Assembly (NCBI GenBank): GCA_030603365.1
Contig: JAUVXV010000010.1
Coordinates: forward strand, 32,001 to 96,000
Length of the DNA stretch: 64,000 bases
Source of the DNA: Candidatus Heimdallarchaeota archaeon
GTDB taxonomy: Archaea; Asgardarchaeota; Heimdallarchaeia; Heimdallarchaeales; Heimdallarchaeaceae
Direction of reading: 5' to 3'
Positions 15,531-61,676 of the stretch are shown here, piece by piece. The notes beneath the pieces are model-generated. The model worked only from the letters and a program-made list of their open reading frames with translations. It was not told the DNA's origin and did no database searches. The translations under genes and the position numbers were made by a program. The first letter of the stretch is position 1. Every line of letters begins with the position of its first letter.

Positions 15531-15737
15531 TCAATGTGGATGCAACTTCATATTTCCTTCTTTATCGATAATTGCACCAGCATGTCTTAACGCCCAACAA
15601 GAAATAACCACTCCCACAGGCAAACTTGCGGGATGTCGAGCTGCGAATTCCATATGAACATCTAACACTGAAGGTCCTTCACCTAAACTAATGGCACCAA
15701 TTTCTAACTTATTCAAGATTTCAATAAGATTTTTCAA
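15531..15737 (-). pseudogene. orphan 3' tail (~68 codons) of fumarate hydratase alpha subunit
   Basis: Near-identical peptide to the C-terminus of 16505-17389, with mostly synonymous nucleotide changes. Confidence 0.9.
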
Positions 15738-15743
15738 GTAAAA

Positions 15744-16412
15744 TTATTTCTTCATTCTCAAGATATTATTTCTCTTTCTATTGTAGAAGTAAGAGATTAC
15801 AAATAAAATTGGAAGAAGAACTGAAAATAAAGGAATAGCCTTGAGTTTAAAGGGATTTTCATTGAAAGAGATTTCAGAACCATTATCAGAAATTTCTAGA
15901 GATATTCTTGCTGGAGCTATTATCTCCTCATAGATACTAGCTTTCCATTCACCAATAGTAATTTCATACAGTCCTTTTGGAAGCTCTGTTATAGTAGGAT
16001 CATATATAAAAAATTGAGCAGATGCCCACGAAATAGTTTGACCAGGAGGAAAAGTTAAGGAGACACAGGCCAGAGTACAAATTTCACCTCCATTTTTAGT
16101 CTCTAAACTTTTATTCTGCAAATTGCATTTGACTGAAGAATCCCATAAACATCCATCACCAAATCCTATAATGATATCAGTTAAGTAGATGTTAGTAATA
16201 GTCAAGTCTATAGAGAACTTAAAATTGACTGAATCTTCAAACTGACCCCAAAGATGCCAAGATAAAGAAGAAGGTGTTAAACTAAGCACATTGGTCATTT
16301 CAGATTCATCAGTATTAGAAATAACAGTTTCAGACAAACTACTGATAACAAGGAAAATAGAAAATAGAGGAATAAATAACTGTCTCTTCTTCATTAGATT
16401 TCTAGTAAACAT
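15744..16412 (-). CDS. secreted/membrane-anchored hypothetical protein (cargo)
   Basis: Signal-like N-terminus, beta-rich core, C-terminal TM + basic tail. Confidence 0.7.
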   Translation of the reverse strand: MFTRNLMKKRQLFIPLFSIFLVISSLSETVISNTDESEMTNVLSLTPSSLSWHLWGQFEDSVNFKFSIDLTITNIYLTDIIIGFGDGCLWDSSVKCNLQNKSLETKNGGEICTLACVSLTFPPGQTISWASAQFFIYDPTITELPKGLYEITIGEWKASIYEEIIAPARISLEISDNGSEISFNENPFKLKAIPLFSVLLPILFVISYFYNRKRNNILRMKK

Positions 16413-16504
16413 AGTAGAATAGGAATATTAAGCTTTTGTAGAAAAATAATAAGAGCTTTAGATAATGATTCGGAGTGTGAAATATACTAAAATGAGAAAA
16501 AATG

Positions 16505-17389
16505 TTAGTGGGGATGCAACTCCACATTTCCTTCTTTATCAATAGTTGCTCCAGCATGTCTTAAAGCCCAACATGAAATAACTACTCCAACAGGCAAACT
16601 CGCTGGATGTCGAGCAGCGAATTCCATATGAACATCTAAAACTGATGGTCCTTCACCTAGACCCATTGCTCCTATTTCCAGTTTGTTTAAGATACTCAAA
16701 AGTTCTTTTTCAATTGAAGCAATACTTTCATCTTCATGGTACTTAAATAATGGTCGTAAAAGAGCCTTCTTTGCTAGGTTCATACACATATCTTCTCCTC
16801 CACCAACACCCACACCAACTGTATAAGGAGGACATGCGAGCGGACCAGCAGCAGCAACTGCTTCTACAACAAATTCTTTTACACCTTTGATACCTTTACC
16901 AGGAGGAACCATTTTCATTTTACCCACATTTGATGATCCTCCACCCTTAGGCATGGCAATGATTTCACATTTATCTCCCTCTACTAAATCGAAATAAAAC
17001 CATGGAACATATCCGCGGATACCAACGTTATTATTGGTGTTTCCTTTAAACATATCAACTGCATTAGGTCTTAATGGAACCTTTTCTGTTGCTCTCTTTG
17101 TTGCTTTGATCAGAGCTGTTTTAATCTCTGATTTTAGTGGAAACTTATCTCCTACTTTCACAAAGAAAGAAACAAGCCCAGTATCTTGGCACATAGGTTT
17201 GATTTCACTTTCTGCAATTCGAACATTTTCATTAATTGCATGTAATTGTGATTTACCTAAAGCTCCTTCTGTTGTATTTTCACTTTTTATTAAAACCTCT
17301 TTAACTTCAGTTGGTAGTTCAGTAGCAGCCAATTTTAACAATCCTACAGCTGTATCTTCTATTACTTGTGCTATATCCTTCATTATCAT
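16505..17389 (-). CDS. fumA: class I fumarate hydratase / tartrate dehydratase alpha subunit
   Basis: PMCQDTG, PKGGGS, ACPPY, RHPA..VVISCWALRH. Confidence 0.9.
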   Translation of the reverse strand: MIMKDIAQVIEDTAVGLLKLAATELPTEVKEVLIKSENTTEGALGKSQLHAINENVRIAESEIKPMCQDTGLVSFFVKVGDKFPLKSEIKTALIKATKRATEKVPLRPNAVDMFKGNTNNNVGIRGYVPWFYFDLVEGDKCEIIAMPKGGGSSNVGKMKMVPPGKGIKGVKEFVVEAVAAAGPLACPPYTVGVGVGGGEDMCMNLAKKALLRPLFKYHEDESIASIEKELLSILNKLEIGAMGLGEGPSVLDVHMEFAARHPASLPVGVVISCWALRHAGATIDKEGNVELHPH

Positions 17390-17525
17390 CACAATTCCTG
17401 TAAAATTTTCTCTTTATTAGCTTCAATATTCTTTTTTGATTCTTCTGTTAAATTTCCACCATGTGTGTCAATTGTTATTGTCAAAGGACCAAATTCTTCT
17501 ACTTCGTAGACCCAGAAACATTCGG
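17389..17525 (-). pseudogene. orphan 3' tail (~45 codons) of fumarate hydratase beta subunit
   Basis: ECFWVYEVEEFGPLTITIDTHGGNLTEESKKNIEANKEKILQEL* is colinear with 20479-20615. Its TGA overlaps the fumA ATG. Confidence 0.9.
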
Positions 17526-17635
17526 TTGAATGCATGTGTTTCACAGAAATAATTTGATTTAAAATCTTGTGTTATATACTTATACTTATTTTGTAAAATC
17601 AAACGTAGTTATTGGAAGTTTAGGAGATAAATGCA

Positions 17636-20353
17636 TCAAATATCATTCCAATTTGAAACTATATAATCCCAGGTTTCTTCTAAAGCTATCTCAGGTGTGG
17701 AGTCAAGCACTTCCTTCCATATTTGAAATTGAATGTCTTCTACCAATTTATTAAATAAATTATTTTGTATAGGTAGGATAAATGTCCTATTAATCTCTTT
17801 TCTAATAGTCCACTTATCAACACCATATTTTGTTCCAAAACCTAAAAGAACTTCTCTCCAATCTCCATTACCTGTATAGTCAAATTGAACTTGTTTGTCA
17901 ACAACACGAATTCTAAACCCATTTCGAGGTTCAATAGAACTAGGTAAAAAAAACGACCAGTCATCTATTGTTTGGATATATTCTAGTATCCATGAAAAAA
18001 GAGTTGCCCAGACTTCTTTAAATTCAAATACTATTGCAAAAAGAAGTTTGATGTTAAAATCTCCTTCAGAATTTCTAAAATTATAGTTTGTTTTTAGAAA
18101 ATTTACTGGTTCTACAGGAATACCGGACTGAATAAGTCGTTTCTTCCAAGCATCAACTATCTGATTAGAGCTACTGAATTCAACTCCTCTTACATTGATT
18201 TTAAAAGGAAATTGTAAAAGCATTTTACTTAAAGATTCATTAGTTTTAAAAAATTGATTCAAATTCAATTTAACGCCAAACCAAGGTAATCTACCATTAA
18301 ACCCTACAACTTCAACTGGGGATATTGTTTTTCGATCAAAGAAAATTATAGGTTTAATTAATTTTGATTTATGATTTAGATTAAATCCATCTGGTACTTT
18401 ATAAGGTGGTTCTAAATCTCTTAATATTTTTTGTATCCAATTTGGATTATTTAAATAATGTTGCCAAATTTCTTTTTCACATTCAACATTTACACTATCA
18501 CTAACTAAGAGATCTCCAAAGAATTTAGCTTTCAATTTACTCCAACCACTAAAGAAATCAGATCCTTCTGTTATGCGATTTCTTTTGAAAATTTTTTCAA
18601 GTGAATAAGAACATTCCCAATGTTGATGAAATTTATAGGGTACTACACATTTGCTTTCGAAATTTTTGTCTAGTTTTTTAAATGTTTTTTGACCGAAATT
18701 ATTTAGGGTTTCTAGACAATGAAACATCGTCCCACAATTAAAAACTGAAAATTCTTCAATAATTTTCCTTTGGCTAAGAATCATAATTTCATAGTAGATA
18801 GTTCTTTGCATTTCATTAATCTTTTTAACTATTTCAAGTTCAGACATACCATCATGAATCAAACAAGGAGAGAGTTTATCCAGAGCTCCTTTCAAAATTG
18901 AATTCAGCATTGAATAGGTTGGGTATTTATCAGATGATTTTTTACCAGATTTTATCATGTCTTGAAGATTTGTATTAAAACAATCTAGAGATAATCTTAT
19001 TGTTCCATCTTTCGTTTTTACAAAGATTGGCAAAAATACATCTCGATGTATTTTGATTGATATAAATCTATTATTGTTATAACTTGTTCTAGTTTTTACT
19101 TTAAGTTCTATTTCTTGAACAGCTTCATCTGCAACGGTGAAATATCCGTTTTTTGTTACTAATTTATGTGCATTACCATGTTGAATTAAGGAAATTAATT
19201 GGTTTTGCTTTATAGCTCCCTTCAATATTCTATTAATTGTAATTTGAGAAAGCCCTGAATCTATCAGAACATTTCGTAAATTTCCTGATTTAATTTTTTT
19301 ATTAAAGTTGAAACCCACACCAGAAGTTGTGAATAAATATTTCTTTCTTAAAGCATCCACCAAATCATTTGCTTTCTTGAAACCAATCTTTAAATGGATA
19401 AGTTCCACATGTTTTGCTTTCAAAAATGAATCAATATCATCAAATATTTGTGTAGTAAATTTGATATTCTTACTTGTTCTAATATAGTCAAAAAAACCCC
19501 CCAAATCCTCCCCTACTTTCATTTCAACAATCTTAAGATCATACTTTGCAGATTTTCCTTTTCCAATTACTCCTAAAATAATGTCATCGAACCCATTGGA
19601 ACTGGAAAACTTACCTTTTAATCCTCTAATTAATATTTTATCTAGTTTTAATGAAACCCCATTGATATTCCAAAACCGCCGCATTTCATCTTTTTCGAAA
19701 TTTAATTTAATTTGAGCTTTTAGAAAACTCTCAGCTGTATGAGTACTTGTAATTCCTTTAACACCATATTTAGTCAATAGTACTCTTACATATGAATCAG
19801 ATTCTGAAGGTTCAAGAGGTGTCGAAAATTGTTTCAGATCTAGAGAATCAGAGGTTCTTTGATACTTTTGACAATTTCCATTTTTTGAATCATTATAATC
19901 CTTCAAAAAATGAATTCCAAGCTCATTTACATTTCTTTCTCCATATTGATTTAAAGGACCAAAAACCTTGTTGAGGTTTTCAGAATCATTAATGAGAGAA
20001 TTTACCCAATTATCGTAATTACTTTCTGGTTTTCCATGTAGATCGTTTATATCATTCCTAAGACGATTTGAATATTCAATACTCTCATTTAGGTGTGAAA
20101 TTAGAATCTTCTTAAACTGATTTTCGTTCTCCGTCAGATTATTTTGTATAACAAATCTACTCCTTACAAAATTTGAATTATCTTGTTTCATAGTTTCCAT
20201 ACTGAAATCCAAACTATCTTTATTTTGAGCAATTAACTTTGTTATTTGTTTTTTTATTTGCTTAATTGTTTTTAATTCATCTTCTATTTTCTTAAACAAA
20301 TTATCAGATTCTAGCTGTTTGTGAGCTTTGTTTTCATTTATTCTTGTATTCAT
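17636..20353 (-). CDS. 905-aa hypothetical protein with putative PD-(D/E)XK nuclease domain (cargo)
   Basis: Long, very AT-rich ORF; N-terminal coiled coil; HTAE...NGFDD...IVEMK motif. Confidence 0.65.
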   Translation of the reverse strand: MNTRINENKAHKQLESDNLFKKIEDELKTIKQIKKQITKLIAQNKDSLDFSMETMKQDNSNFVRSRFVIQNNLTENENQFKKILISHLNESIEYSNRLRNDINDLHGKPESNYDNWVNSLINDSENLNKVFGPLNQYGERNVNELGIHFLKDYNDSKNGNCQKYQRTSDSLDLKQFSTPLEPSESDSYVRVLLTKYGVKGITSTHTAESFLKAQIKLNFEKDEMRRFWNINGVSLKLDKILIRGLKGKFSSSNGFDDIILGVIGKGKSAKYDLKIVEMKVGEDLGGFFDYIRTSKNIKFTTQIFDDIDSFLKAKHVELIHLKIGFKKANDLVDALRKKYLFTTSGVGFNFNKKIKSGNLRNVLIDSGLSQITINRILKGAIKQNQLISLIQHGNAHKLVTKNGYFTVADEAVQEIELKVKTRTSYNNNRFISIKIHRDVFLPIFVKTKDGTIRLSLDCFNTNLQDMIKSGKKSSDKYPTYSMLNSILKGALDKLSPCLIHDGMSELEIVKKINEMQRTIYYEIMILSQRKIIEEFSVFNCGTMFHCLETLNNFGQKTFKKLDKNFESKCVVPYKFHQHWECSYSLEKIFKRNRITEGSDFFSGWSKLKAKFFGDLLVSDSVNVECEKEIWQHYLNNPNWIQKILRDLEPPYKVPDGFNLNHKSKLIKPIIFFDRKTISPVEVVGFNGRLPWFGVKLNLNQFFKTNESLSKMLLQFPFKINVRGVEFSSSNQIVDAWKKRLIQSGIPVEPVNFLKTNYNFRNSEGDFNIKLLFAIVFEFKEVWATLFSWILEYIQTIDDWSFFLPSSIEPRNGFRIRVVDKQVQFDYTGNGDWREVLLGFGTKYGVDKWTIRKEINRTFILPIQNNLFNKLVEDIQFQIWKEVLDSTPEIALEETWDYIVSNWNDI

Positions 20354-20478
20354 GATGATAACTTCATATTATAATGCTAAAAATGATTTAAAAACTCATG
20401 AAAAAACATATAACTAAGTAAAAGTGGAAAAAGGGGTTAAGATTTAGAAATCTTAGTGAAAAAACCAAAATTATTTTT

Positions 20479-21075
20479 TTACAAGTTTTGTATAATTTTA
20501 TTTTTGTTCTCTTCTATCTTCTTTTTGCTTTTTTCAGTCATATTACCACCATGGGTATCAATTGTTATAGTTAAAGGACCAAAGTTTTCTACATCGAAGA
20601 GCCAAAGCGATTCGGGCATTCCCAACTCCTCAAACCAAAAAACGTCCTTGACTTTCTTTATTCTATTTGCTGCGAGTAGTGCAGCACCTCCTGTAAAGTA
20701 ACCATAAATGCATGTTTCCTCTTGGCATGCTTTTGTAGTTCTTTCTCCCATACCACCTTTACCTATGATGATACCTGGCTGGAAAACTCTAATGAATTCA
20801 TCTTGGAAAATTTCCATTCTTGCTGAAGTTGTTGGTCCTGCTGCAACAACAATCCATTCACCTTCTTCATTCTTCTTCATGACTGGACCGCAGTGGAAAA
20901 GACCAATCCCTTTGAAATCTACGGGAGGTTTTTCTCCTTTTTTATGCAGTTCCAATGCTTTTAGATGAGCCTCATCCCGAGCAGTTACAACCGTCCCTGT
21001 GAGATACACAATATCCCCAATAGATATTTTCTTCAAATCTTCTGGGGGAATTGGAGTAGTCAAATGATATTCCAT
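20479..21075 (-). CDS. fumB: class I fumarate hydratase / tartrate dehydratase beta subunit
   Basis: TARDEAH, HCGP, GPTTSARM, IGKGGM, FGPLTITIDTHG. Confidence 0.9.
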   Translation of the reverse strand: MEYHLTTPIPPEDLKKISIGDIVYLTGTVVTARDEAHLKALELHKKGEKPPVDFKGIGLFHCGPVMKKNEEGEWIVVAAGPTTSARMEIFQDEFIRVFQPGIIIGKGGMGERTTKACQEETCIYGYFTGGAALLAANRIKKVKDVFWFEELGMPESLWLFDVENFGPLTITIDTHGGNMTEKSKKKIEENKNKIIQNL

Positions 21076-21200
21076 GAGTTTCGAGCTAACATAAATTATT
21101 TAATCTTTCGAAGGGGACTTATCGAATAGCTGAATAAACTAGTGCTAGTCAAAATTTTAAATAAGCGATAAAGATATACTATAAGATAAAGTGAGATTCA

Positions 21201-21971
21201 ATGACAACCATTTCTGACTTATTAGAAGAAGTTGCTCAGCTAGTTGTTGACGCTAATTCTATAGTTATCTTTACTGGTGCTGGAATAAGTACTCCAAGTG
21301 GCATTCCTGATTTTCGCTCTCCAGGAGGATTATGGGAAAAATATGACCCATTTGAGGTTTCATCAATGAGAGCGTTCAAGAAAGAGCCAGAAAAGGTTTG
21401 GGAATTTTTCAGAGATTTATATCAACAATTTGAGGATCCTCAGCCAAATCCTGCACATTTTGCAGTTACAGACATTCAAAAATTAAAGGGGAGTGATCAT
21501 GTTCATATTGTCACACAGAATATTGATGGACTTCACACAAAATCAGGAGCGAAAAATGTTTTTGAAATTCATGGAAATGCTGAAAAAATGCATTGCTACA
21601 AATGTGCTTTTGAGGAAGATTTGGATGTAGAAAAGCATCTTAATACTCACCCATACCCCAAATGTCCAAATTGTGAAAAACCACTCAAACCAAAAGTTGT
21701 GCTATTTGAAGAATTGTTAGATAATAATTTATTCCAAAGAGCATTAAGATTAGCAGTGAAGAGTGATTTAGCTATAGGTGTAGGCACAAGTCTAGGTGTT
21801 TTTCCTGCAGCAGATATTCTTTTGAGACCTCCTCCAAAAACAAAGAAAGTAATTTTTAATCTCACACCAACCTACTATGATCATTTAATACATTATAGAG
21901 TCAGAGGAGATATTGTAGATACTCTACCTGAATTGGTTAAAGAAGTTAAGAAAAAAATGAGTGACGAATAA
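21201..21971 (+). CDS. cobB: Sir2-family NAD-dependent protein deacylase
   Basis: GAGISTPSGIPDFRS, TQNIDGLH, HG, two CxxC pairs, GTSLGVFP. Confidence 0.93.
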   Translation: MTTISDLLEEVAQLVVDANSIVIFTGAGISTPSGIPDFRSPGGLWEKYDPFEVSSMRAFKKEPEKVWEFFRDLYQQFEDPQPNPAHFAVTDIQKLKGSDHVHIVTQNIDGLHTKSGAKNVFEIHGNAEKMHCYKCAFEEDLDVEKHLNTHPYPKCPNCEKPLKPKVVLFEELLDNNLFQRALRLAVKSDLAIGVGTSLGVFPAADILLRPPPKTKKVIFNLTPTYYDHLIHYRVRGDIVDTLPELVKEVKKKMSDE

Positions 21972-22054
21972 ATAGCAGTTTTTGAAGAAGATTACTACTT
22001 CCAGAAAGTTTAAAGTATTAAGTCCGTTAATTAATAGACATAAGGTAGATTTGA

Positions 22055-23059
22055 ATGTCATTTGATAAAGATCCTGAAGAATTCAAGAAAGAAGTACAAG
22101 AAGAAAGTACTTTTCAAAAAGAACTGCTTGATGCTGTAGAAGACCAAGCAGAGGAAATTGAGGAAGAAGAGGTCCGCTACAAACAGGAAGCCGTTAGGGA
22201 AGAAAAACCAAAGAAAAAGGAAATAGAAACTAGACCTACTCCAGCTCCTGTTGCAAAACCAGTAGATGAGAAGAAAAAGAAAAAGGAACCAAGAGTAGTA
22301 TATACTCATATAGATGTTGATCTATGGAGAACTAAATTACATAAAGAAGAATGGGGAATCAGAAAAGATGCTCAAAGAGCTCAGAAAGATAGACAGTGGA
22401 CAAGAGATATGGATCAACTTGGAACTGTAAAGATTGATGGAGAAGACTACGGGCTTCTAGCTATACGAGAGAAATCTTGGAAAGAAAAAGATCCTCTTGA
22501 AAGAAGATTTGTCATGAAAATGTTCTCTCCAAGTGGTTATTGGAGAGCTAGTATTGAAAGATTACAGGGAGAAAGTTTTGCTAATTCACTAGCAACAAAG
22601 GAACCTTCACCAGCTTATGTTTGTATTTTTAAACACACTCGAAATCTATTCCGAATTCGAAGATTAGCTCATTTCCCACGTTTCCAAGGTCAAATATTTG
22701 GTTTCAGTTATTTGGATGAAACTGATGTTTTTCATTCCTTTGTTATTGATGATAAACGATTACGTTTAGGTTCTGACTGGGTTGTAAAAGATATACATAA
22801 TAAAGTCATAGCTAAAATAAATGGTAAATTCATGAACATCGGTGGTAGATTCAAAATTGATATCTTCAACCAAAAATTGGCTAAAGACAAGACTTTCTTT
22901 AACACTCTAATCTTATTCAGTACTACACTTAGGTTCTATAGAGACATAAAGAAAAACATAAAGAAGGCACTTAAAGAGCTTAAAACTTCTGATGCAGAGG
23001 TTAAACTTGACGATAGTGAAACAAATCTTTACCTCAACCCTAGAAAGCTATCAATATAG
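22055..23059 (+). CDS. hypothetical protein; acidic N-terminus, possible tubby/LURP-one-like C-terminal domain
   Basis: Beta-strand-rich C-terminal half (IAKINGKFMNIGGRFKIDI) followed by a hydrophobic helix. Confidence 0.6.
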   Translation: MSFDKDPEEFKKEVQEESTFQKELLDAVEDQAEEIEEEEVRYKQEAVREEKPKKKEIETRPTPAPVAKPVDEKKKKKEPRVVYTHIDVDLWRTKLHKEEWGIRKDAQRAQKDRQWTRDMDQLGTVKIDGEDYGLLAIREKSWKEKDPLERRFVMKMFSPSGYWRASIERLQGESFANSLATKEPSPAYVCIFKHTRNLFRIRRLAHFPRFQGQIFGFSYLDETDVFHSFVIDDKRLRLGSDWVVKDIHNKVIAKINGKFMNIGGRFKIDIFNQKLAKDKTFFNTLILFSTTLRFYRDIKKNIKKALKELKTSDAEVKLDDSETNLYLNPRKLSI

Positions 23060-23148
23060 CTTTACTAGTTTCTCTTTATTTTTTCTTATTTCTCTAATAA
23101 ACAGTGTTTTTATACCTAAATAACATATTTTCTAAAGAAGGAAGGCTC

Positions 23149-49839: not shown

Positions 49840-49884
49840 GAAGAATATCCTAGCTTTTATTAATAGAAAACGATAGAAATTAAC

Positions 49885-52184: not shown

Positions 52185-52191
52185 AGACTCT

Positions 52192-52458: not shown

Positions 52459-52976
52459 AGTTTCTCCAACAATCTTGTAGCATAGTCAACAATGAGAAGT
52501 TCATCACAAGTGTATGATTGAATGAAATTTTCCGCTCTCTTCAACCAAAGTTTGAGGATTTCTTTATCTGGATAATCCATTGTAACTAAGGTAAAGAGAA
52601 CTTTGGAAGGGAGACGAGGAGCAAGGTCAGGATTGGAATTTGTTTCCCAAGCGAGAGAATAGTAGCCTATAGCTATTTCCAATTCATCCCGTATTGTATG
52701 AAGGTTCCCTAAATAGAAATAAGTTAAATTAGAGGAAAGATCGGATAAAGAAAGTTCTTGGAAGAATCGTATTGCAGAATCAACTTCTCCTTGTTGAATT
52801 AAACTAAGACCTAGAGTTAAAAGCAGGTTATATTCAAAATCAAATAGAGCATCGATTGCAGTTTGTTCTTTTTCTTCTGATTCTAAACTTAGCATGATTA
52901 CTTTCATTAAAGAGTCTAGAAAAATAGTATAAAAACCTAACAAAAAATCTCTCAAGATAAACAGAAGAAAACTCAT
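52455..52976 (-). CDS. TPR-like protein
   Basis: LGLSLIQQGEVDSAI / YFYLGNLH..AIGYY; the true start may be internal. Confidence 0.65.
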   Translation of the reverse strand: MSFLLFILRDFLLGFYTIFLDSLMKVIMLSLESEEKEQTAIDALFDFEYNLLLTLGLSLIQQGEVDSAIRFFQELSLSDLSSNLTYFYLGNLHTIRDELEIAIGYYSLAWETNSNPDLAPRLPSKVLFTLVTMDYPDKEILKLWLKRAENFIQSYTCDELLIVDYATRLLEKL

Positions 52977-53002
52977 CTAATTTCTGTTTATTACTCGTAG
53001 AA

Positions 53003-54100
53003 TTAGAATTTTTTCAAAAACTTCTGTAACTCTTCTTTAGTAAACTCAAAAACTACTTCTGAATTCCATTTCTTGTATCCTAAAATCTCATTTATTTTAT
53101 GCATATGGATGTTAGCTGAAGAACTACCTGTTGACCATGTTCTTACTTGTGTGGTTTTTAACATTCTCTCCAGCATTTGGTACTTTAAAGCTAATCCGAG
53201 ACCATTTCCTCTATGTTCATGTAGAACACCTGTTTCCCACTGCCATGCAACCTGTGGTTGATAATCACTGATTACTGAAACAGTAATGCCAACTGGGTTT
53301 TTTGTTTTTCTTTCAATAGCGACGAAAGACAGAAAAGTTTCCCATCTCTGAAGATTATTATCACATTGCTCATCATAACGCTCTGTAGTTAGTTTTGTAT
53401 TTTCTTCTGAAAGCTTCTCTCTTGGCATGTCATTCCAAACACATTCTATTAAATTGACGAACTTTGGATAGTCTTCTATATTTTCTTTGTAATTCAGATT
53501 ATCAACAATTATTAGATCATAACCTTTCTGAAGTACTTTCTCTTTTTGTTTTTGAGCTTCTAAAGAAATCTCATCTAAATTATGCTCATCAAGATTCGCA
53601 ATGTAAAAAAACTCTTCATAAGCTCGTTCATCCTTAATTTTATCATAAAAGTGCTCTTCTTTTGATTCACTCAAGTACCAAGCATACATTGTTTTGATCT
53701 GCTCTGGAATACTATTCACTATCTCTCTAAACATAATCATTCTGTTATTCTCTTTTTCCTTATTGTCCTGTAAGTGAATAAAATGCCAAGCTTGTTCTAA
53801 ATTGTCATATTTTGTATTCCAGCCTAACCAAGCATAACTCATAACTTCATCATTCTCATTTACTCCTACAAATTGGAGGCTTTTTACCCAAGATAACTCA
53901 GGAACCTTCCAGTTTTTTCTATAGAAATTTAAGTGAGGAGGATCAGCAGGAAGGTATTCTCTTTGAGATTTCTGCATTAATTCGAATATACTCTCAAGAT
54001 ATTTTTCGGGAATGTCTTCCTTCATCCCTGAGATGATGTTCTGAATTCTCATTTTGTCACACTCCAAAGAAATCGTTAAAAATCTGTTGAATTGAAACAA
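53003..54100 (-). CDS. GNAT-family N-acetyltransferase (tandem)
   Basis: TGVLHEHRGNGLG..LK, N..M..IN..LGY. Confidence 0.85.
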   Translation of the reverse strand: MFQFNRFLTISLECDKMRIQNIISGMKEDIPEKYLESIFELMQKSQREYLPADPPHLNFYRKNWKVPELSWVKSLQFVGVNENDEVMSYAWLGWNTKYDNLEQAWHFIHLQDNKEKENNRMIMFREIVNSIPEQIKTMYAWYLSESKEEHFYDKIKDERAYEEFFYIANLDEHNLDEISLEAQKQKEKVLQKGYDLIIVDNLNYKENIEDYPKFVNLIECVWNDMPREKLSEENTKLTTERYDEQCDNNLQRWETFLSFVAIERKTKNPVGITVSVISDYQPQVAWQWETGVLHEHRGNGLGLALKYQMLERMLKTTQVRTWSTGSSSANIHMHKINEILGYKKWNSEVVFEFTKEELQKFLKKF

Positions 54101-54141
54101 TTTCAGATAATACTTAAAATAGCTAGAACGAATAATTAATT

Positions 54142-55686
54142 ATGAGAAATCATCTTTCTATCATTTGCTTTATCCTTGTAATTTTAGCTCCATTTACTGG
54201 AACTGGATCAACTTTACAGCAAGCTAGTCCTACAATTGTCGATTATATCTATTGTAATAGTAATATTATAACAATTGATGATTCCAGCTCATTGTTTGAA
54301 GCTATTGCAATTAAAGATGGCATTATAGTTGCCTTAGGTAGTAACGAAGAAATTCTATCAAATTATGAAGCAGAAAATAATCAATGCTATAATCTGGAAG
54401 GACGAACCATTATGCCTGGAATAATCGATGGTCATACACACTATATGGCATCATTATTTTGGATTGGAGAAACAGAAACAATCTATGAATCTCAAATTTT
54501 AGCTTTAGCTAATGGCTATACAACCTTAAATGAAAAAAGTATAGACATGGGTGAATTTCAATGGTTACAGGAAGCAGAACAAAGTAATACGCTTCGTCTT
54601 CGAGTAAACGCTTTTCTTATTTACAATTATGCTTGGCTTGAAAATAATGAATCTGTATTAGTTGAACACTGGAATCCAGATTTAGAACCTCTACTAAATC
54701 ATGACCGCAAGTTTCGTGTTCCTGGATTCAAAATCTATTTAGATGGAGCTTACGGACACCGAGGTTTTCCAGCAATGAGTGACCCTTATACACAGGAAAT
54801 GATAGATTTATGGGGGATTATCAATCCTTATGGAGATCTTTATTTTAATCAATCAGAATTAAATTCAGTAGTAGATTCTTTTCATGATAGAGGTTTTAGT
54901 GTAGCTGTTCACGCAATGGGTGATAGAGCAACTGAAACAATCCTAAATTCTATAGAATATGCTTTGAATGGGACAGATAATGATAATGCACGACATCAGA
55001 TTGAGCATAACAGCTTCATTAGAGAAGATCAAATCGCTAAAGCTTTATCACTTAATACTATTCATTCTGTTAGAGGCTACTTCCCAACTTATTGGCAGCA
55101 AGAATATGCTGATCTTTACAGTTCCATATGGATGGAAAGGACAGTAAACAGATACTCTCTGCCTGGAGAAGGACTTCATTCTTATCTAGAAACTGATTTT
55201 GGTTTTCTTCATGGTTATGATGAAGATAATTGGAGTAAATCAGCTAATATCAGACCTTTCCTACACTTATGGGGTTTGGTTACTAGAAAAGCAATTGATA
55301 TTAATGGTACAATCCATGAACCTGATCCTTGGGTTGCAGAACATGAAATTACAGTTGAACAAGCACTAAGAATGATGACCATAGAAGGAGCGTATGCAGT
55401 AAAACAAGAGGACTATATTGGTTCTTTGGAAGTTGGTAAATATGCAGATATAATAATTTTAACAGCTGATCCTCTAACAATTGATCCTGATGAGCTAAAA
55501 GATATTGAAGTTATGCTTACAATGGTAGAAGGAAAAATAGAATTCCAAATGGCAAGTCACTCATTCCCAATAACATGTGAGCTTTCAACACCAGGGACAG
55601 ATACAACACCATGGACCATTCTCTTATCAATAACTGGAATATGTGTCATTGTTCTAATAACCACAAAAAAGATAAGAATAAAATAA
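54142..55686 (+). CDS. secreted amidohydrolase-3 (YtcJ-like) with C-terminal TM
   Basis: MPGIIDGHTH, KIYLDG, HAMGD, IEH, GSLEVGKYAD. Confidence 0.85.
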   Translation: MRNHLSIICFILVILAPFTGTGSTLQQASPTIVDYIYCNSNIITIDDSSSLFEAIAIKDGIIVALGSNEEILSNYEAENNQCYNLEGRTIMPGIIDGHTHYMASLFWIGETETIYESQILALANGYTTLNEKSIDMGEFQWLQEAEQSNTLRLRVNAFLIYNYAWLENNESVLVEHWNPDLEPLLNHDRKFRVPGFKIYLDGAYGHRGFPAMSDPYTQEMIDLWGIINPYGDLYFNQSELNSVVDSFHDRGFSVAVHAMGDRATETILNSIEYALNGTDNDNARHQIEHNSFIREDQIAKALSLNTIHSVRGYFPTYWQQEYADLYSSIWMERTVNRYSLPGEGLHSYLETDFGFLHGYDEDNWSKSANIRPFLHLWGLVTRKAIDINGTIHEPDPWVAEHEITVEQALRMMTIEGAYAVKQEDYIGSLEVGKYADIIILTADPLTIDPDELKDIEVMLTMVEGKIEFQMASHSFPITCELSTPGTDTTPWTILLSITGICVIVLITTKKIRIK

Positions 55687-55703
55687 AATGAAATGAAATA
55701 GGA

Positions 55704-55825
55704 TTAATTTAATCCTATAATGTCCCCATCTTCACTGTAGTCCATTCTATTAGCAGTTGGATTGAAGGGAATTAAGGGATTAAAACAAACTACAGTATAC
55801 AGGAAAAAAGTACGAGCTCCAATGG
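55704..55825 (-). pseudogene. second, more decayed orphan 3' tail of fhs
   Basis: ...PTANRMDYSEDGDIIGLN*; weak similarity continues to acgagctcc (GAR codons). Confidence 0.8.
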
Positions 55826-55902
55826 TAGTCTCTTTCTTCTTTAGAATCTATAGGAGATTTATGAAAGACAACTATAAATAATACAAATGATATAATTTAG
55901 GT

Positions 55903-56274
55903 ATGTCTGAAGAGGAGATTAAAGAACTGGAAGAGTTCCTTTTACCATATGTTAATGACAGACTTGACAAGTGGTACATAGCTACTAAAATTGGAGAGTG
56001 TTTTATGTGGGTTGCTAGAGCCTTGATTAGATGTCTTCTAAATGTTACCGAGAAGATTCATTTGCATGAAATAACGTCGATTTCACTTTCTGAAGTTTAT
56101 TTTATAGAAAAAATTAATATATTTCAGAATAAGGATGGTGCTATTTCCAGCTTTATGGAAATGGACCCACATAAAATTTCAGGAGAAATACACCAATGGA
56201 TTATTCATCTTCAGGAAAATGGAAAACTCTCCGGAATATACGAAAGGCATACTGGATTTTATCGAAATAAATAG
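55903..56274 (+). CDS. hypothetical protein, possibly frameshifted/pseudogene
   Basis: 123-aa ORF with an overlapping downstream frame (56135-56347). Confidence 0.45.
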   Translation: MSEEEIKELEEFLLPYVNDRLDKWYIATKIGECFMWVARALIRCLLNVTEKIHLHEITSISLSEVYFIEKINIFQNKDGAISSFMEMDPHKISGEIHQWIIHLQENGKLSGIYERHTGFYRNK

Positions 56275-56468
56275 TTATGATAACTTTTGGGACATATATC
56301 AACTAAACCGCATCATGTTCATGAAAGAGGGAAAAAAGATGCAGTAGAAAGCGAGATGACAGGAAACTCTGATAACGACATACCTCTACTAATTGAAGTT
56401 TTGAAGATATTTCTAGTGTAAAAATGAGCATATTCTGTATGAAGAATTATGACATAGTAAAAGTTTGT

Positions 56469-56518
56469 TAAAAAAAAAGGGGTTTGCTCCAACTTCTGTT
56501 GGATTAGAACAGAGTGGA
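56469..56518 (-). terminator. hairpin + T-tract after gene 56543-57100
   Basis: Minus strand: CTCCACTCTGTT..AACAGAAGTTGGAG followed by CCCC and a T run. Confidence 0.55.
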
Positions 56519-56542
56519 GTGTGTTTCAAAGGTTATTTATGC

Positions 56543-57100
56543 TTAATAAGGCATAAAATAATTGTTCATAAAGGCTAAGTCTACTCCAGGAGTTACATAG
56601 TGTGCCATTCCTGGCATTGGTCCACCGTCGAAGTTGAAGGCTGTTCTGGCTGTATGTTTGAGCCAAATAACTTTATCAGGATGTTCAGCTCCACCATCAA
56701 CTGCTCTCATTTCATGTCTATGAACATATCCCATACTGGCATATGCTTCAGCCTTTTCTGGACTCCATGTATCGATAATACCATGTACTATGAAAAGGAG
56801 TTCACCATCAGCTGCGTCAGAAGACCACCATTGTGCCATTCCAAAAGGACCAGTGTTATAGTGTTTTCCAACGAACTGATTAGGTCCAGCTTGTACCCAG
56901 TAATGACCAGGAACATCGAATTCTCCATTAGGACCATCAGGCGCACCTGCCATGTAATAATCTATTCCATCAACATTGAAAACGATCCCATGTACAAAAC
57001 CTTTAGCGTTTGCTGAGGTTGTTTCTGCAGATGCTAGTGCTGTTAAAGCAAAAATCGAAAGCATAAACAAACTCAGACCGATTGTTTTTGATTTATTCAT
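56543..57100 (-). CDS. secreted Gly/His-rich hypothetical protein (cargo)
   Basis: Signal peptide; PGHYW, HYNTGP, HRHE, WLKH His-rich motifs. Confidence 0.75.
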   Translation of the reverse strand: MNKSKTIGLSLFMLSIFALTALASAETTSANAKGFVHGIVFNVDGIDYYMAGAPDGPNGEFDVPGHYWVQAGPNQFVGKHYNTGPFGMAQWWSSDAADGELLFIVHGIIDTWSPEKAEAYASMGYVHRHEMRAVDGGAEHPDKVIWLKHTARTAFNFDGGPMPGMAHYVTPGVDLAFMNNYFMPY

Positions 57101-57274
57101 AATTCATCAAACCGTTAAGTGTTACCAATATAATGGTAACATTACTTATAATTAAGTATCCAACTATAAATATATGTGGTTTAAACAAAAATAAACATAT
57201 GATCAAAAAAACCAACTGCAAAAAAGATTATTGTAAGTTTAAATGTGTCAGTATAGATTGAAAATTCACTATAG

Positions 57275-57538
57275 TTGATTTATTTAACGCTAGGGGAACC
57301 AAAATATACGATGGGGGGGAAATATTTGCTGTTAGTACAATTCAAATTAATACGACATTTATTTTACCATTTGATTTCGATGGTGTATATGAAAAAAATC
57401 GGAAGTGATTATGTTGGTTATTATCATTATACGCTTAAAGTAACTGGAACAACTGAACCTACAGATTTTGGTTTCACAATAATAGGAGTAGTGATAGTCG
57501 TTATCTGGATTACTAAACATAGAAAAAAGAAAATATAA
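57275..57538 (+). pseudogene. C-terminal remnant of TM-anchored surface protein
   Basis: ...TGTTEPTDFGFTIIGVVIVVIWITKHRKKKI* tail with no credible start. Confidence 0.5.
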
Positions 57539-57561
57539 GAATGAATAAAAGTAGGGCTAGT

Positions 57562-57873
57562 TTAGTTTAACCCTATAATGTTTCTATCTTCAGTATAGTC
57601 CATTCTGTTAGCTGCTGGAACTGGAGGTAGTCCAGGCAGTAAGAACATGCTACCACAAATGGGAACGATAAAACGAGCACCAGTGTATAATCTGACCTCG
57701 TCAACATTAAGGGTCCAACCCTTGGGTGCACCCATGAGACCAATCTTGTCTGAAAGGTTGAGTTGAGTCTTAGCCATACAGAGAGGGAAGTCAGCAAAAC
57801 CAAGCTTTTCGATGTAAGCAATATCTTGGAGAGCTTGAGGTGAGCATTCTACGCCTTCAACACCATAGATTTT
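57562..57873 (-). pseudogene. orphan 3' tail (~103 codons) of fhs
   Basis: Colinear with 59985-60296 without indels; 7 amino-acid differences and many synonymous changes. Confidence 0.95.
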
Positions 57874-57897
57874 TATTCGAAAAGGAGAAAGAAGCTT

Positions 57898-59976
57898 ATG
57901 AGAGGAACAACTAGAGCAATAATCATGTTATTGATAGGGACCTCTTTGTTCAGTCCTTTGCTGATCGAATCAGATAATCAAAAAGATTTGAATTCATCTC
58001 CTTCTTCTCCTTTTCTTTTTTCTTATTCTAGTGCAATAAATATCGATAATGATTCTGCTTTTATTACATATGGATTTCCAGGAAATGGAACTTTTAGTAA
58101 TCCATTTAGAATTGAAAATCTGGAAATAATCTCAAACGAAACTTACTCGATTCGAATTCAAAATACTAATAGTTTCTTTATCATCACCAACTGTAAACTC
58201 AATTCAACATATAATGGTATTAATTTGAAAAATCTTGCAAACAACACAGCAATTGTAGAAAACAATGTTTTTTCAAATTTTGATCAAGGAATTGGATTAT
58301 ATATAGAAAACTCTTCTTTTACCAAAATTATAGATAATCATTTCTCATACTCAAAGACAGCAATTATGACAAGACTAGATACAGATAATTGTACTATAAT
58401 CAATAACTCCTTTGAGTATATATCAAGTGAATGCTTCTCGATACAAGAATCGGATAATTGTGTAATCATTAGTAATGAATGTTTAATTTCTAGTACCTTT
58501 CTGTACGCCTATTTTTGTGATTATTTGACAGTTGTTAATAATTTCTGTGATGATACGCGACAATTCACTCATGTAAGTCACTCTCAAAATTGTAATATTT
58601 CTAGTAATACATGTTCAAATATTACTGAAAATGGGATATATATTGGAGATACTGATTCATGCGATGTTTTATTCAATGAAATTAATGGAGGTTCAGCTGG
58701 TCTCAGAATTGTATCTTCATCAAATGTAAATATTTGTTGTAATACAATTGAATACTGTAATATTGGATTGGGTTTACGAAAATCCAGAGAATGCTATATT
58801 AAAAAGAATAATTTTACTAAATGCGGCATTTCTATCGATGAAGTAGAAGAACCAGATATTGATACATGGATGTTAGAAGACAATCTAGTTAATGGTAAGT
58901 TACTCGGTTTTTATCGGCACAAAGGAACTAATTTCTTAATTGAAGAAGAATATGGACAACTAATCCTAGTGGATTGTTTCCAAGTGACAGTTAGAAATAT
59001 AAAAATTGAAAACACTAGTATGGGGATAGGTTTATTTTATTGTGATTATTCAATTGTTGAAAACTGCACAATAAGTAATACAGTACAGAATTTTGTCCTC
59101 TATGAATCCTATTCATGTAATATTACAACTAGTTACAGTTTTGCCTCTACTTACGGTCTAGTAGTCTCTCGTTCAGAAAATTGTTATGTTCTAGAAACAG
59201 AAATTTACAACAATGATTATGGGATCCAAATTAGTCTATCAGAATATTGTTACATTAATAAGAATAATATCTTAGCAAATAATCACTATGGAATTGAACT
59301 CCATTTCTCTGATTACTGTGAGATAACAGAAAATACAATCAAAGAGAACATAAAAGGCATTTACCTAAACTTTGTGAGTACAATATTAATTGGAAGTAAT
59401 TACATATCACAAAATTATCCAAATCCCGTTTACAATAATAATTCCGCAGGAATTTATTCAACTGCAGCACTTTGGGTCTCAATTAAACACAATTCTTTTA
59501 CAGATAATGAAAAAGGAATATTGTTGTTGTTTAGTCATTATTTTATGATTTCAGATAATTGTTTTAGGAATAATAACTATGGTATTGTAGGGAAAGAAAT
59601 TTTGGAAAGTGAAATCAAATACAATTGGTTTGAAGAAAACAGCTTTTACGCCATTACTTTAAGTTCTATCTCTACAGGAAACATAATACATCATAATGCA
59701 TTCATAAATAATAATAATGGTAATGTTCAAGTTTTGGATGATGGATTTAATAACACTTGGTATAAAGTGGAAACAGAAGAAGGAAACTATTGGAGTGATT
59801 ATCAAAAAACAGGAAATTATAGTATAGATGGAATGGCAAATTCGTATGATCTCTATCCATTAATGGTAAATCCTTTAAGAAAGAGTTACTCGAGTTATTA
59901 TGCGTTTTTTTCAATGATAATTTTGATTCCAGTAAGTGTTATAGCTTTGAAAAAATATAGAAAAAGAAAAGAGTAA
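57898..59976 (+). CDS. NosD/beta-helix surface protein with C-terminal TM (cargo)
   Basis: Signal peptide, PGNGTFSNPF, NLVNGK.LGF, GNYWSDY..DLYPL, TM + KKYRKRKE. Confidence 0.88.
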   Translation: MRGTTRAIIMLLIGTSLFSPLLIESDNQKDLNSSPSSPFLFSYSSAINIDNDSAFITYGFPGNGTFSNPFRIENLEIISNETYSIRIQNTNSFFIITNCKLNSTYNGINLKNLANNTAIVENNVFSNFDQGIGLYIENSSFTKIIDNHFSYSKTAIMTRLDTDNCTIINNSFEYISSECFSIQESDNCVIISNECLISSTFLYAYFCDYLTVVNNFCDDTRQFTHVSHSQNCNISSNTCSNITENGIYIGDTDSCDVLFNEINGGSAGLRIVSSSNVNICCNTIEYCNIGLGLRKSRECYIKKNNFTKCGISIDEVEEPDIDTWMLEDNLVNGKLLGFYRHKGTNFLIEEEYGQLILVDCFQVTVRNIKIENTSMGIGLFYCDYSIVENCTISNTVQNFVLYESYSCNITTSYSFASTYGLVVSRSENCYVLETEIYNNDYGIQISLSEYCYINKNNILANNHYGIELHFSDYCEITENTIKENIKGIYLNFVSTILIGSNYISQNYPNPVYNNNSAGIYSTAALWVSIKHNSFTDNEKGILLLFSHYFMISDNCFRNNNYGIVGKEILESEIKYNWFEENSFYAITLSSISTGNIIHHNAFINNNNGNVQVLDDGFNNTWYKVETEEGNYWSDYQKTGNYSIDGMANSYDLYPLMVNPLRKSYSSYYAFFSMIILIPVSVIALKKYRKRKE

Positions 59977-59984
59977 AAGTAGGG

Positions 59985-61676
59985 TTAGTTTAACCCTATT
60001 ATATTCCCATCTTCAGTGTAGTCCATTCTGTTTGCTGCTGGAACTGGAGGGAGTCCAGGCAGTAAGAACATGCTACCACAAATGGGAACGATAAAACGAG
60101 CACCAGTGTATAGACGAACTTCATCTACATTGAGAGTCCAACCTTTTGGAGCACCCATCAAACCAATCTTGTCAGATAGACTTAGTTGGGTTTTAGCCAT
60201 ACACATTGGAAAATCAGCGAAACCAAGTTTTTCGATGTAAGCTATATCTTGGAGAGCTTGTGGTGAGTATTCAACATCATCAGCACCGTAGATTTTGGTG
60301 GCGATTTTCTCGATTTTAACTTTAATAGGATCAGAAAATTCGTAAGCAAATTTAACGTCACCAGTTCCTTTTTCGATAGCTTCTAAAACAGCTTCGGCAA
60401 GTTCTATACCACCTTCGCCACCTTTCATGAAAACTTCACTTTCAGCAGCAGTAACACCGAATTCAGAGCACTTGTCTTTAATCCATTTAATCTCTTCATC
60501 AGAATCAAAGGGGAAGCGGTTAATAGCAACAACAGGGGGTATATTAAAGACATTAAGCATGTTATCAAGATGTTTTTCAACATTCTCGAAACCTTTAGCT
60601 AATTCATCCATATGAATATTTTTAGCTTCATCTAAATCTTTGATACCACCGTGGAGTTTGAGGGCACGAGCAGTAACAACAAGAACTACTGCGTTTGGTA
60701 AGGTATCATATTGACGAGCAACAATATCGACAAATTTTTCGAAACCAAGGTCAGCTGCAAAACCACCTTCAGTGATGGTATAATCTGCAAGCTTGAGGGC
60801 AAGCTTTGTAGCAACGATAGAAGAGTTTCCGTGCGCCACGTTAGCAAATGGGCCTGCGTGTATGAACCCTGGTACTCCTTCAAAGTTTTGTACTAGGTTT
60901 GGTTTTATTGCATCTTTCAGTATTAGTGTCATTGCTCCTACTGCTTCAATATCCCTAGCGAAGACTGGCTTATCATCATAAGTGTATCCTAATAGAATAC
61001 TTCCTAATCTTTCTTTCAGTTCTCCCACATCAGCTGATAGAGCTAAAATAGCCATAATTTCTGAAGCTGCTGTAATAACAAAGCCTGTGTTTCGGACATC
61101 ACCACCCATTCTTCTTCCACCAAGTCCAGTAATGATATTTCTTAATGCTCTATCATTCATATCTATTGCTCTTGGCCAAGTTACTTTGGTTGGATCAATG
61201 TTACACTTATTTCCTTTTGTTAAGTGATTGTCAAGCAAAGCTGCTAGTAAATTATGAGCTGAAGTAATAGCATGTAAATCTCCTGTAAAGTGCAGATTTA
61301 TGTCCCACATTGGAAAAACTTGCGAAAGATGACCTCCTGTTGCTCCTCCTTTTATTCCGAAAGTTGGACCCATACTTGGTTCTCTTAAGGCAAACATAAC
61401 TTTCTTGCCTAATCTGTTAAACGCTTGAGAAAGACCTATTGTTGTAACAGTTTTACCTTCACCTGCTCTTGAAGCAGTCATAGCTGTTACAGCGATGAGT
61501 TTTCCATTAGGTTTATCGGATTTTAATATCTTTAGCATTGTTTGATAATTTATTTTTGCTACATATTTTCCGAATTGCTCGAGGTCATCTTCTTCCAGAC
61601 CTACTTTTGCAGCAATTTCCCTAATATTTTTCATATCTTTTTGCTTTTCTTGAGCAATTTCTATGTCAGTTTTCAT
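59985..61676 (-). CDS. fhs: formate--tetrahydrofolate ligase
   Basis: MKTDIEIAQ start, GEGKT, REPSMGP.FGIKGGA, HAGPFANVAHG, MAKTQ. Confidence 0.96.
   Translation of the reverse strand: MKTDIEIAQEKQKDMKNIREIAAKVGLEEDDLEQFGKYVAKINYQTMLKILKSDKPNGKLIAVTAMTASRAGEGKTVTTIGLSQAFNRLGKKVMFALREPSMGPTFGIKGGATGGHLSQVFPMWDINLHFTGDLHAITSAHNLLAALLDNHLTKGNKCNIDPTKVTWPRAIDMNDRALRNIITGLGGRRMGGDVRNTGFVITAASEIMAILALSADVGELKERLGSILLGYTYDDKPVFARDIEAVGAMTLILKDAIKPNLVQNFEGVPGFIHAGPFANVAHGNSSIVATKLALKLADYTITEGGFAADLGFEKFVDIVARQYDTLPNAVVLVVTARALKLHGGIKDLDEAKNIHMDELAKGFENVEKHLDNMLNVFNIPPVVAINRFPFDSDEEIKWIKDKCSEFGVTAAESEVFMKGGEGGIELAEAVLEAIEKGTGDVKFAYEFSDPIKVKIEKIATKIYGADDVEYSPQALQDIAYIEKLGFADFPMCMAKTQLSLSDKIGLMGAPKGWTLNVDEVRLYTGARFIVPICGSMFLLPGLPPVPAANRMDYTEDGNIIGLN

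Follow-up and report, generated by a model that had tools for sequence, protein, structure and literature searches.

Displacement of gene ends is known from bacterial toxin loci. For Rhs genes, displacement of the C-terminus through circular intermediates has been proposed (Jackson et al. 2009, PMC2935791), and in type VI secretion systems (T6SS) the displacement of effector ends has been ascribed to homology-facilitated illegitimate recombination (HFIR; Kirchberger et al. 2017, PMC5361080). Here we analyse a related layout in a 64,000-nucleotide (nt) stretch of a Candidatus Heimdallarchaeota genome (G000:C3:32001-96000; hereafter the window), where the fumarate hydratase genes fumB and fumA and the formate-tetrahydrofolate ligase gene fhs are each intact and each followed by cargo and by an orphan copy of the gene's own 3′ end. 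G000 denotes this genome (3.65 Mb, 33% G+C, 17 contigs), other G numbers the congeneric genomes compared with it (G001, G004, G012 and so on), and C numbers contigs. As in arrays of Rhs, contact-dependent inhibition (CDI) and T6SS genes, a conserved upstream part has acquired a new end plus a downstream gene, the old end is displaced and there is no integrase. Stacked orphan ends are a further likeness (at fhs, C12:41720-42916 and C16:102684-103844). Unlike those bacterial systems, in which a toxin domain is fused to the core and accompanied by an immunity gene, the present case involves near-synonymous enzyme ends, separate cargo genes and an Asgard host.

A second relative is the insertion of restriction-modification genes with a long target duplication and without a mobility gene (Nobusato et al. 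2000, cited in Furuta et al. 2010, PMC2853133). There, the repeats are direct, 30 to >400 bp long, present as a single copy in the empty-site genome and often overlap the 3′ end of a gene; they are near-identical (e.g., 44/46 or 417/423), and the survey's filters let through no archaeal case. Our loci likewise have direct repeats of >30 bp, a single copy at the empty fumB-fumA sites of at least 14 congeners and no mobility gene. They differ in that the upstream repeat is a foreign allele (74-84% identical, synonymous divergence dS ~0.8) travelling with the cassette, and the cargo is not recognisable as restriction-modification genes. In fungal mitochondria, free-standing homing-endonuclease genes sit behind partial C-terminal duplications of atp6 and cob (e.g., PMC6279837). 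The order of intact gene, mobile open reading frame (ORF) or frames and duplicated C-terminal segment is the same here, and fumB has a fixed insertion point at nt ~460-470 of the gene. Those mitochondrial ORFs encode LAGLIDADG or GIY-YIG enzymes, whereas our loci offer a motif-level PD-(D/E)xK hint in one of several cargo types.

Integrating elements form a third group. When e14 enters icd of E. coli, or ICESt1/3 enters fda, the element supplies a divergent 3′ end, the native end is left as a pseudogene and tandem accretion is possible. Such elements encode a tyrosine integrase and use a short identical core site. No such integrase was found at our loci, and no core site was defined. Finally, flexible genomic islands of cell-surface genes, of the replacement or the additive kind (Lopez-Perez et al. 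2014, PMC4033161), keep hypervariable surface-protein genes in a fixed slot beside conserved genes, where recombination in the conserved flanks exchanges them; the slots behind fhs and fumA across the genus fit this picture. Replacement islands, however, swap by double crossover without duplicated gene ends, and additive islands are usually anchored at tRNA genes with integrases. An earlier first-pass annotation of this DNA, made from its letters alone, knew of no description of the layout in this form. The same geometry appears in PMC2935791, PMC5361080, PMC2853133 and PMC6279837, and since the principle has already been reported from fungal mitochondria and, in bacteria, from toxin loci and restriction-modification genes, our loci extend a known principle and found no new one.

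Orphan ends of fumB, fumA and fhs

The intact genes, their orphan ends and the intervening cargo are as follows (window coordinates; TM, transmembrane segment).

20479-21075, minus strand: live fumB, class I fumarate hydratase beta subunit, 198 aa (Pfam Fumerase_C, E=2.7e-43)
20479-20615, minus strand: cassette-borne substitute end of live fumB, its last ~45 codons (live ends of occupied genomes group apart from empty-site ends)
17636-20353, minus strand: cargo c905, 905 aa, without a recognised family (also present at this site in G012, G004, G001, G009 and G008)
17389-17525, minus strand: orphan fumB 3′ end, ~45 codons (self-BLASTN, TBLASTN; boundary common to G000, G004, G009, G008 and G001)
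16505-17392, minus strand: live fumA, alpha subunit, 295 aa (Pfam Fumerase, E=8e-84)
15744-16412, minus strand: cargo c222, predicted from its translation to be a surface protein with an N-terminal signal/TM, a C-terminal TM and a basic tail
15531-15737, minus strand: orphan fumA 3′ end, 68 codons plus stop (Pfam Fumerase, E=3.4e-14)
59985-61859, minus strand: live fhs, formate-tetrahydrofolate ligase (Pfam FTHFS, E=2.8e-235)
57898-59976, plus strand: cargo NosD/beta-helix surface protein, 692 aa, with signal peptide, C-terminal TM and basic tail (Pfam NosD, Beta_helix)
57522-57873, minus strand: orphan fhs end 1, 104 codons (57562-57873) plus ~36-40 nt of shared post-stop sequence (Pfam FTHFS, TBLASTN)
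55704-55825, minus strand: decayed orphan fhs end 2 (72% identity in its last 25 codons), facing the 3′ end of an amidohydrolase gene

Self-BLASTN of the window paired 15524-15737 with 16498-16713 (fumA, 83.4% identical), 17391-17525 with 20481-20615 (fumB, 76.3%), 57522-57873 with 59949-60296 (fhs, 83.9%) and 55665-55793 with 59950-60076 (fhs, 74.0%), all as direct repeats. These four matches are not due to chance, because their E-values run from 1e-12 to 1e-104. By TBLASTN every tail lies downstream of the intact gene in the same orientation, is in frame, ends in a stop codon and has no internal stop. Against the live proteins, 60/68 residues are identical for the fumA tail and 97/104 for fhs tail 1, with replaced ends at 88-93% protein identity to live ends; at lengths of only 120-310 nt, however, any one identity value for a tail is noisy. 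The fumB tail matches at 33/60 residues overall and is well conserved only in its last ~45 codons. The first-pass annotation had placed all four tails where we find them, but its 41 codons for fhs tail 2 were too generous: only the last 25 are recognisable (18/25 identical).

How the tails diverged from the live genes was assessed by the method of Nei and Gojobori. If one copy had been dead since duplication in situ, a pairwise ratio of nonsynonymous to synonymous divergence (dN/dS) of at least ~0.5 is expected. The fumA tail has dS 0.79 and dN/dS 0.10, and fhs tail 1 has dS 0.81 and dN/dS 0.05; duplication followed by decay is therefore rejected for both (P=1e-9 and P=1e-20). The fumB tail (dS 0.76, dN/dS 0.29) is borderline within this genome (P=0.06). 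A dN/dS of 0.40 makes fhs tail 2 compatible with decay, and it looks decayed. Divergence in the three preserved tails is thus mostly synonymous, as had been noticed from the letters. By these ratios, by the decay tests and by the clustering of orphans with live alleles of other species described below, the sequences identify the tails as xenologous alleles from other lineages and not as fresh duplicates, which bears out the earlier proposal.

Polarity and spread of the fumB module

We compared the locus across 25 genomes of the genus, one per species, all of them metagenome-assembled genomes (MAGs) with 2-8% contamination; some contigs (C19 and C61 of G013) may belong to co-binned strains. The site is empty, with fumB and fumA adjacent, in at least 14 of them. 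G000, G012, G004, G001, G009 and G008 have a homologue of c905 with an orphan fumB end behind it, and G003 has a different duplication at the locus. Across the occupied genomes the orphan has a common first codon, directly ahead of E-C-(L/F)-W.

The live gene is a chimera in five backgrounds (G012, G008, G004, G001 and G009): it is native to nt ~460-470 and continues with the cassette-linked end. Relative to empty-site sisters, live fumB is 87-97% identical over nt 1-460 and 68-75% over nt 470-597. The values for the two segments are 95% and 71% for G012 and G013, 92% and 70% for G008 and G010, 94% and 70% for G004 and G033, 92% and 70% for G001 and G011, and 89% and 70% for G009 and G005. Among occupied genomes, nt 470-597 are mostly 78-91% identical (G012-G000, 90%; G001-G004, 91%; G008-G004, 84%). 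The orphans in turn match live ends of sisters (G008 tail with G010, 95.8%; G001 tail with G017, 94.2%; G012 tail with G013, 91.7%). Because live ends resemble other cassette ends and orphans resemble the live ends of sisters, we conclude that the live end moves together with the cassette, leaving the orphan as the former end of the host gene. At fumB, then, the live 3′ end is imported and the orphan is native. This was the polarity first suggested, with a new end arriving alongside cargo and the old one pushed downstream; it is seen at fumB in these five backgrounds and at fhs in G012 (below). Separate selection on the orphan fumB ends as a lineage of their own was also considered, given that nonsynonymous differences (pN 0.02-0.18) are fewer than synonymous ones (pS 0.25-0.85) between species. 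It was set aside, as each orphan is closest to the live allele of a sister species.

The module has been gained more than once. In a species tree built from a single 4-kb rpoB-region locus, G012, G008, G010, G013, G034 and G018 form one cluster at 95-97% identity, G000 groups with G032, G036 and G016 (all empty-site), and G004 groups with G011. The c905 genes are 80.5% identical between G012 and G000 and 73% between G008 and G004, and only 55% between G012 and G008, which lie within the tight cluster. The module was therefore gained at least twice, from different cassette lineages. The fumAB flanks agree with the rpoB-region tree, so that a movement of the native-looking flanks in place of the cassette was rejected. 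Both fumB junctions fall on the same nucleotides (within ~10 nt) in the five backgrounds, with no detectable donor flank. The first-pass annotation had proposed capture by single crossovers. An integrase-free insertion at fumB stands, but it is no private event of this genome: one 3-kb module with the same two junctions is present in at least six species, which is more readily explained by a module that moves whole than by single crossovers striking at random time after time.

Two further features complete the fumB-fumA locus.

17557-17568, minus strand: A/T-rich TATA-like block ahead of the orphan fumB end (conserved in 7 genomes when the flanks of the junction are aligned)
13372-15459, minus strand: prolyl oligopeptidase (S9), native downstream neighbour of fumA (Pfam; synteny in G032, G036, G014, G034 and G012)

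The TATA-like block lies 21-32 nt ahead of an ATG at 17536, and from its position may be a promoter that re-drives the orphan fumB end and fumA. The orphan's stop codon overlaps the fumA start, like the native operon junction. Together, block, orphan and the usual ATG (17389-17568; likewise in G012, G004, G009, G008, G001 and G003) yield an ORF of 46-56 codons ending at the fumA start, which may be a putative leader ORF for fumA. On the other side, the orphan fumA end begins 6 nt past the stop codon of c222, and 72 nt separate it from the S9 peptidase gene downstream, a spacing that mirrors the tight fumA-S9 arrangement in G032, G036 and G014. G015 and G005 have members of the c222 family (30-35% identical) in the fumA-S9 gap, and further members are found close to fumA in G010 and G013.

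Several congeners show further variation at these genes. The empty-site fumB of G013 (L030, G013:C117) has cassette-like P-E-S-L-W codons at the insertion point (nt 451-480), where its identity to sister genes also dips locally; by its sequence it may have reverted to the empty state after the two ends recombined and removed the module. A genome search found two full fumA copies in G003 (L024, G003:C76; 2087-2962 and 5603-6487; 88.5% identical) with 2.5 kb of cargo and a fumB end between them, and an in-frame TAG in the first copy. G017 fumA (L041, G017:C7, 4324-5200) matches in two frames (residues 4-184 and 186-295) and is probably frameshifted.

The c905 protein carries a conserved GFDD-x19-E(M/Q)K motif on predicted beta strands, invariant in both alignments and down to a 31%-identical homologue. 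The motif resembles that of PD-(D/E)xK nucleases. We treat this as a lead only, because the protein matches neither a family nor a structure and could be modelled only at low confidence. Searches of Pfam (E up to 10), PDB profiles and PADLOC gave no match, language-model leads to restriction-endonuclease-like families were weak, and the ESM atlas returned no usable result. AlphaFold models were poor, with a predicted local distance difference test (pLDDT) score of 46 for the full length and 53 for the domain. Homologues of c905 occur only in Heimdallarchaeaceae, and the named relatives of the window's proteins in general are confined to Candidatus Heimdallarchaeaceae. Distant homologues (~31%) or a C-terminal fragment lie convergent to fhs ends in three relatives (L043, G018:C218, 575-3094; L044, G016:C155, 2430-3968; L015, G012:C41, 11718-12149), so the same family occupies both hot spots.

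The fhs slot and the genome-wide pattern

Behind fhs, the displaced ends are stacked, and older material lies between and beyond them.

59980-59998, no strand: palindrome spanning the fhs stop codon, with copies at 57552-57575 and 55699-55717
55826-57521, no strand: older cargo block, between fhs ends 1 and 2
57275-57538, plus strand: remnant of a TM-anchored gene, in the older block
56543-57100, minus strand: secreted 185-aa protein, in the older block
55903-56274, plus strand: 123-aa ORF, in the older block
54142-55686, plus strand: amidohydrolase with C-terminal TM and basic tail (Pfam Amidohydro_3)

The NosD-like gene is convergent with fhs, and orphan end 1 begins 24 nt before its start (57898). 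This short distance, with that of 6 nt between the c222 stop and the orphan fumA end, brought to mind an RNA-templated origin, a speculative possibility. Homologues 28-30% identical lie between the fhs tails of G010 and G013; NosD/beta-helix proteins form a very large family of diverged paralogues (25-45% identity) with >100 tblastn matches on nearly all contigs. Each fhs stop in G000 sits inside the palindrome and faces the end of a convergent gene coding for a TM segment and basic tail, which accounts for the repeat extending ~36-40 nt beyond the stop. In the oldest copy (55699-55717) the stem is kept by compensatory changes, GGG/CCC to GGA/TCC, and the palindrome is probably a bidirectional terminator hairpin between convergent genes. 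Of the convergent partners of the fhs end, the amidohydrolase gene is the innermost and oldest.

Orphan fhs ends are also common in the genus. They were found in G000, G006, G007, G010, G012 and G013, stacked with different boundaries in all six (two each in G000, G006, G007, G010 and G013), and longer partial copies of up to 290 codons occur in G012 and G013. The 5′ boundaries fall at about nt 1009, 1326, 1561, 1635, 1672, 1693, 1777, 1786 and 1825 of fhs. So many boundaries imply many separate events, making fhs a recurrent hot spot. In G012, the orphan that starts at nt 1009 is 83-91% identical to the live G013 end just past the boundary and 94-99% from nt ~1280, and the live G012 gene diverges from G013 starting at that boundary. 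Polarity at fhs in G012 is therefore the same as at fumB: the orphan is native and the live end is imported. The boundary at nt ~1009 is common to G012 and a G013 contig, yet the adjacent cargo is unrelated. A small anchored surface protein follows fhs even in the tailless G004 and G003, and the slot thus houses genes for surface proteins across the genus. The gene itself is strongly mosaic across clades. Over nt ~560-1000 of fhs, G000 shares 96-100% identity with G004, although the rpoB regions of the two are only 74% identical, which points to recent recombination between clades within the gene.

The first-pass annotation had taken four events in one window as a sign of a genome-wide route. 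DNA and protein scans found at least 13 further orphan ends beside intact genes elsewhere in the genome (dN/dS 0.04-0.18, dS 0.5-1.8), and the pattern in the congeners is genus-wide. The route is not restricted to 3′ ends, as had been supposed, because 5 of these further orphans are 5′ heads upstream of their genes. The clearest cases are the following.

C12:41720-42916: two stacked tails behind the gene
C16:102684-103844: two stacked tails behind the gene
C15:41339-43366, C15:45963-47591 and C15:355571-356806: tails behind each gene
C7:117549-119213: the clearest 5′ head, 120 codons at 87.5% identity, 3.6 kb before the gene

The fragments are always terminal, in frame and facing outward from the intact gene. 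Their cargo consists of accessory genes: anchored surface proteins (signal peptide, C-terminal TM, basic tail), toxin-antitoxin-like pairs and TPR proteins. The surface-protein gene C15:41339-43366 (within C15:40141-44762) is flanked left and right by copies of its 3′ end. Between the gene and each copy lies a small two-gene pair, identified by eye as toxin-antitoxin-like (PIN-like with a small partner upstream, nucleotidyltransferase/HEPN-like downstream).

No known mobility gene was found in the window. ARAGORN found no tRNA gene in the window. The genome has a single tyrosine recombinase match (PF00589), on contig C11 and outside the window, and five serine recombinase/resolvase matches, on C2, C14, C15 and C16 only and none on the window's contig. 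No TnpB copy of the 18 in the genome lies in the window; the nearest (C3:29810-30016) is ~2 kb outside it and >17 kb from the nearest tail. Pfam and PADLOC gave no integrase, transposase, toxin or defence-system match for the cargo proteins, and Pfam detected no recombinase among any of their neighbours in the window. The ARAGORN, PF00589, resolvase and TnpB searches thus agree with the initial impression that integrases, insertion sequences and tRNA genes are absent nearby. The TnpB family itself is of IS200/IS605 type (~420 aa; 18 copies, e.g., C5:143366-144553, C11:77864-79123 and C15:185633-186892). Many contig ends of the assembly break inside TnpB copies, and three copies lie beside resolvase-type (IS607-like) genes.

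Possible routes of capture and their meaning

We favour, at a probability of about 0.6, a recombinase-free, homology-anchored capture and spread of accessory modules that bear substitute gene ends. A horizontally acquired module would land within the last 40-100 codons of a gene and orphan the native 3′ end. It would carry an in-frame substitute end from the ortholog of another congeneric species; the gene would stay intact and the old end would move downstream. The fumB module would also bring a promoter-like block able to re-drive the stranded downstream gene. A module would most likely be born through one homologous joint in the conserved gene end and one illegitimate joint. Possible routes to such joints are Campbell-type integration of a circularised fragment, HFIR, and one-ended break-repair copying of foreign DNA followed by end-joining. 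Once formed, the module would spread between species as an 'insertion allele'. Variable fhs boundaries and outward-facing heads and tails fit one homologous and one illegitimate joint, and selection keeping only those events that restore an intact gene would explain why the scars are always gene ends facing away from it. The sequences show the xenologous origin of the tails, the displacement of a native end by a unit of foreign gene end and cargo, the recurrence of such events and the absence of known recombinases; we infer the chemistry of the joints, the circular or linear intermediates and the promoter function.

Some observations count against homology-anchored capture. All the genomes are MAGs with the contamination given above, and no junction-spanning reads or contigs and no circular or other intermediate were seen. 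Public reads provided four runs with 0.05-0.14 of the words of the fhs stretch; contigs assembled from them were fragmentary, of low depth and from related organisms. G000 itself has no close sampled relative (nearest 80-90%, with a mosaic fhs), and phylogeny does not tell which copy is native at its fumA and fhs. The identical, flank-free fumB junctions in five backgrounds are a further difficulty, as homologous transfer at ~78% genome identity should scatter crossovers. Fixed junctions look more like site-specific or homing insertion, unless exchange reaches the border of heterology or local recombination later homogenised the flanks.

These junctions lend themselves to an alternative that we consider possible but doubtful, in which the modules are site-specific or homing-type elements moved by an unrecognised enzyme. 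Here c905 would cut an empty fumB near nt 465, and repair would copy in the end, the gene and the promoter block. At least two gains in one tight species cluster, from different cassette lineages, suit such an element, as do the invariant GFDD-x19-E(M/Q)K motif with its weak restriction-endonuclease-like leads, the c905-like genes beside fhs ends in G018, G016 and G012, and the published precedents (PMC6279837, PMC2853133). Yet c905 has no significant family, structure or defence-system match and its models score pLDDT 46 and 53. Most other modules (c222, NosD-like, toxin-antitoxin pairs, TPR proteins) lack a candidate enzyme, at least eight fhs 5′ boundaries misfit one fixed target, and a nuclease could equally be defence cargo. 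In a bolder version, which we hold with slightly less conviction still, the fumB module alone would be an autonomous, integrase-less homing-type element. A recoded substitute end, a c905 protein with a PD-(D/E)xK-like nuclease core and an outward promoter driving the stranded end and fumA would jump between Heimdallarchaeaceae species at one insertion nucleotide, and the other cassettes would be passengers or decayed relatives on the same break-repair route.

It is improbable that the arrays descend from e14/icd- or ICESt/fda-type elements that targeted gene 3′ ends with an integrase and later lost it, in the manner of cis-mobilisable elements (CIME-like), or that an integrase encoded elsewhere mobilised them in trans. 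Substitute ends and tandem accretion are classic for such elements, and the fixed fumB junctions would suit them. However, the sole PF00589 gene is on another contig, the window's contig has no serine recombinase, and the fhs boundaries vary without one short identical att core. The repeats are diverged alleles (76-84% identical) of 120-350 bp or more. The examined fumB and fhs stretches of congeners, whose ORFs were only partly scanned with Pfam, contain no obvious large element, and their cargo is 0.7-5 kb of single host-like genes.

Tandem duplication in situ, or old tandem paralogues, followed by 5′ deletion and decay is very unlikely. The partial fhs copies of up to 290 codons in G012 and G013 and the two full fumA copies in G003 could be read this way, and decay would fit fhs tail 2 and, judged from this genome only, the fumB tail. 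Against this stand the dN/dS of 0.05-0.10 at the fumA tail and fhs tail 1, where at least 0.5 is expected, the match of orphans to live alleles of other species, the empty sites in sister species, and the terminal, in-frame, outward-facing fragments. The first-pass annotation had named neutral divergence of the tails as the mark of simple duplication and decay, and such divergence is not seen for these two. Assembly artefact through strain chimeras, although all genomes are MAGs, relatives' contigs often break in these repeats and spanning reads are lacking, is scarcely credible, because the same fumB junctions recur in at least six independent assemblies (within single contigs in G000, G012, G004 and G009), copies only 76-84% identical share too few exact k-mers for a mis-join, and the cargo genes are intact.

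Described mobile elements of Asgard archaea use integrases and short attachment motifs (PMC11529989, PMC8813620). We found no archaeal description of the displaced-gene-end layout in the searchable literature, and the loci reported here are the first clear case in Asgard archaea. They indicate a recombinase-free route at several housekeeping loci, with empty and occupied sister sites, a clear polarity and slots that are reused. In the fixed-junction fumB module with c905 there is a clearly delimited candidate for a new activity, be it in mobility or as a nuclease, and the scars can mark, across the genome, where insertions took place in the past. The uptake of foreign genes by Asgard archaea is little understood, and the route would mainly deliver cell-surface and accessory genes. 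It provides a concrete, testable model of gene flow in the archaeal lineage closest to eukaryotes.

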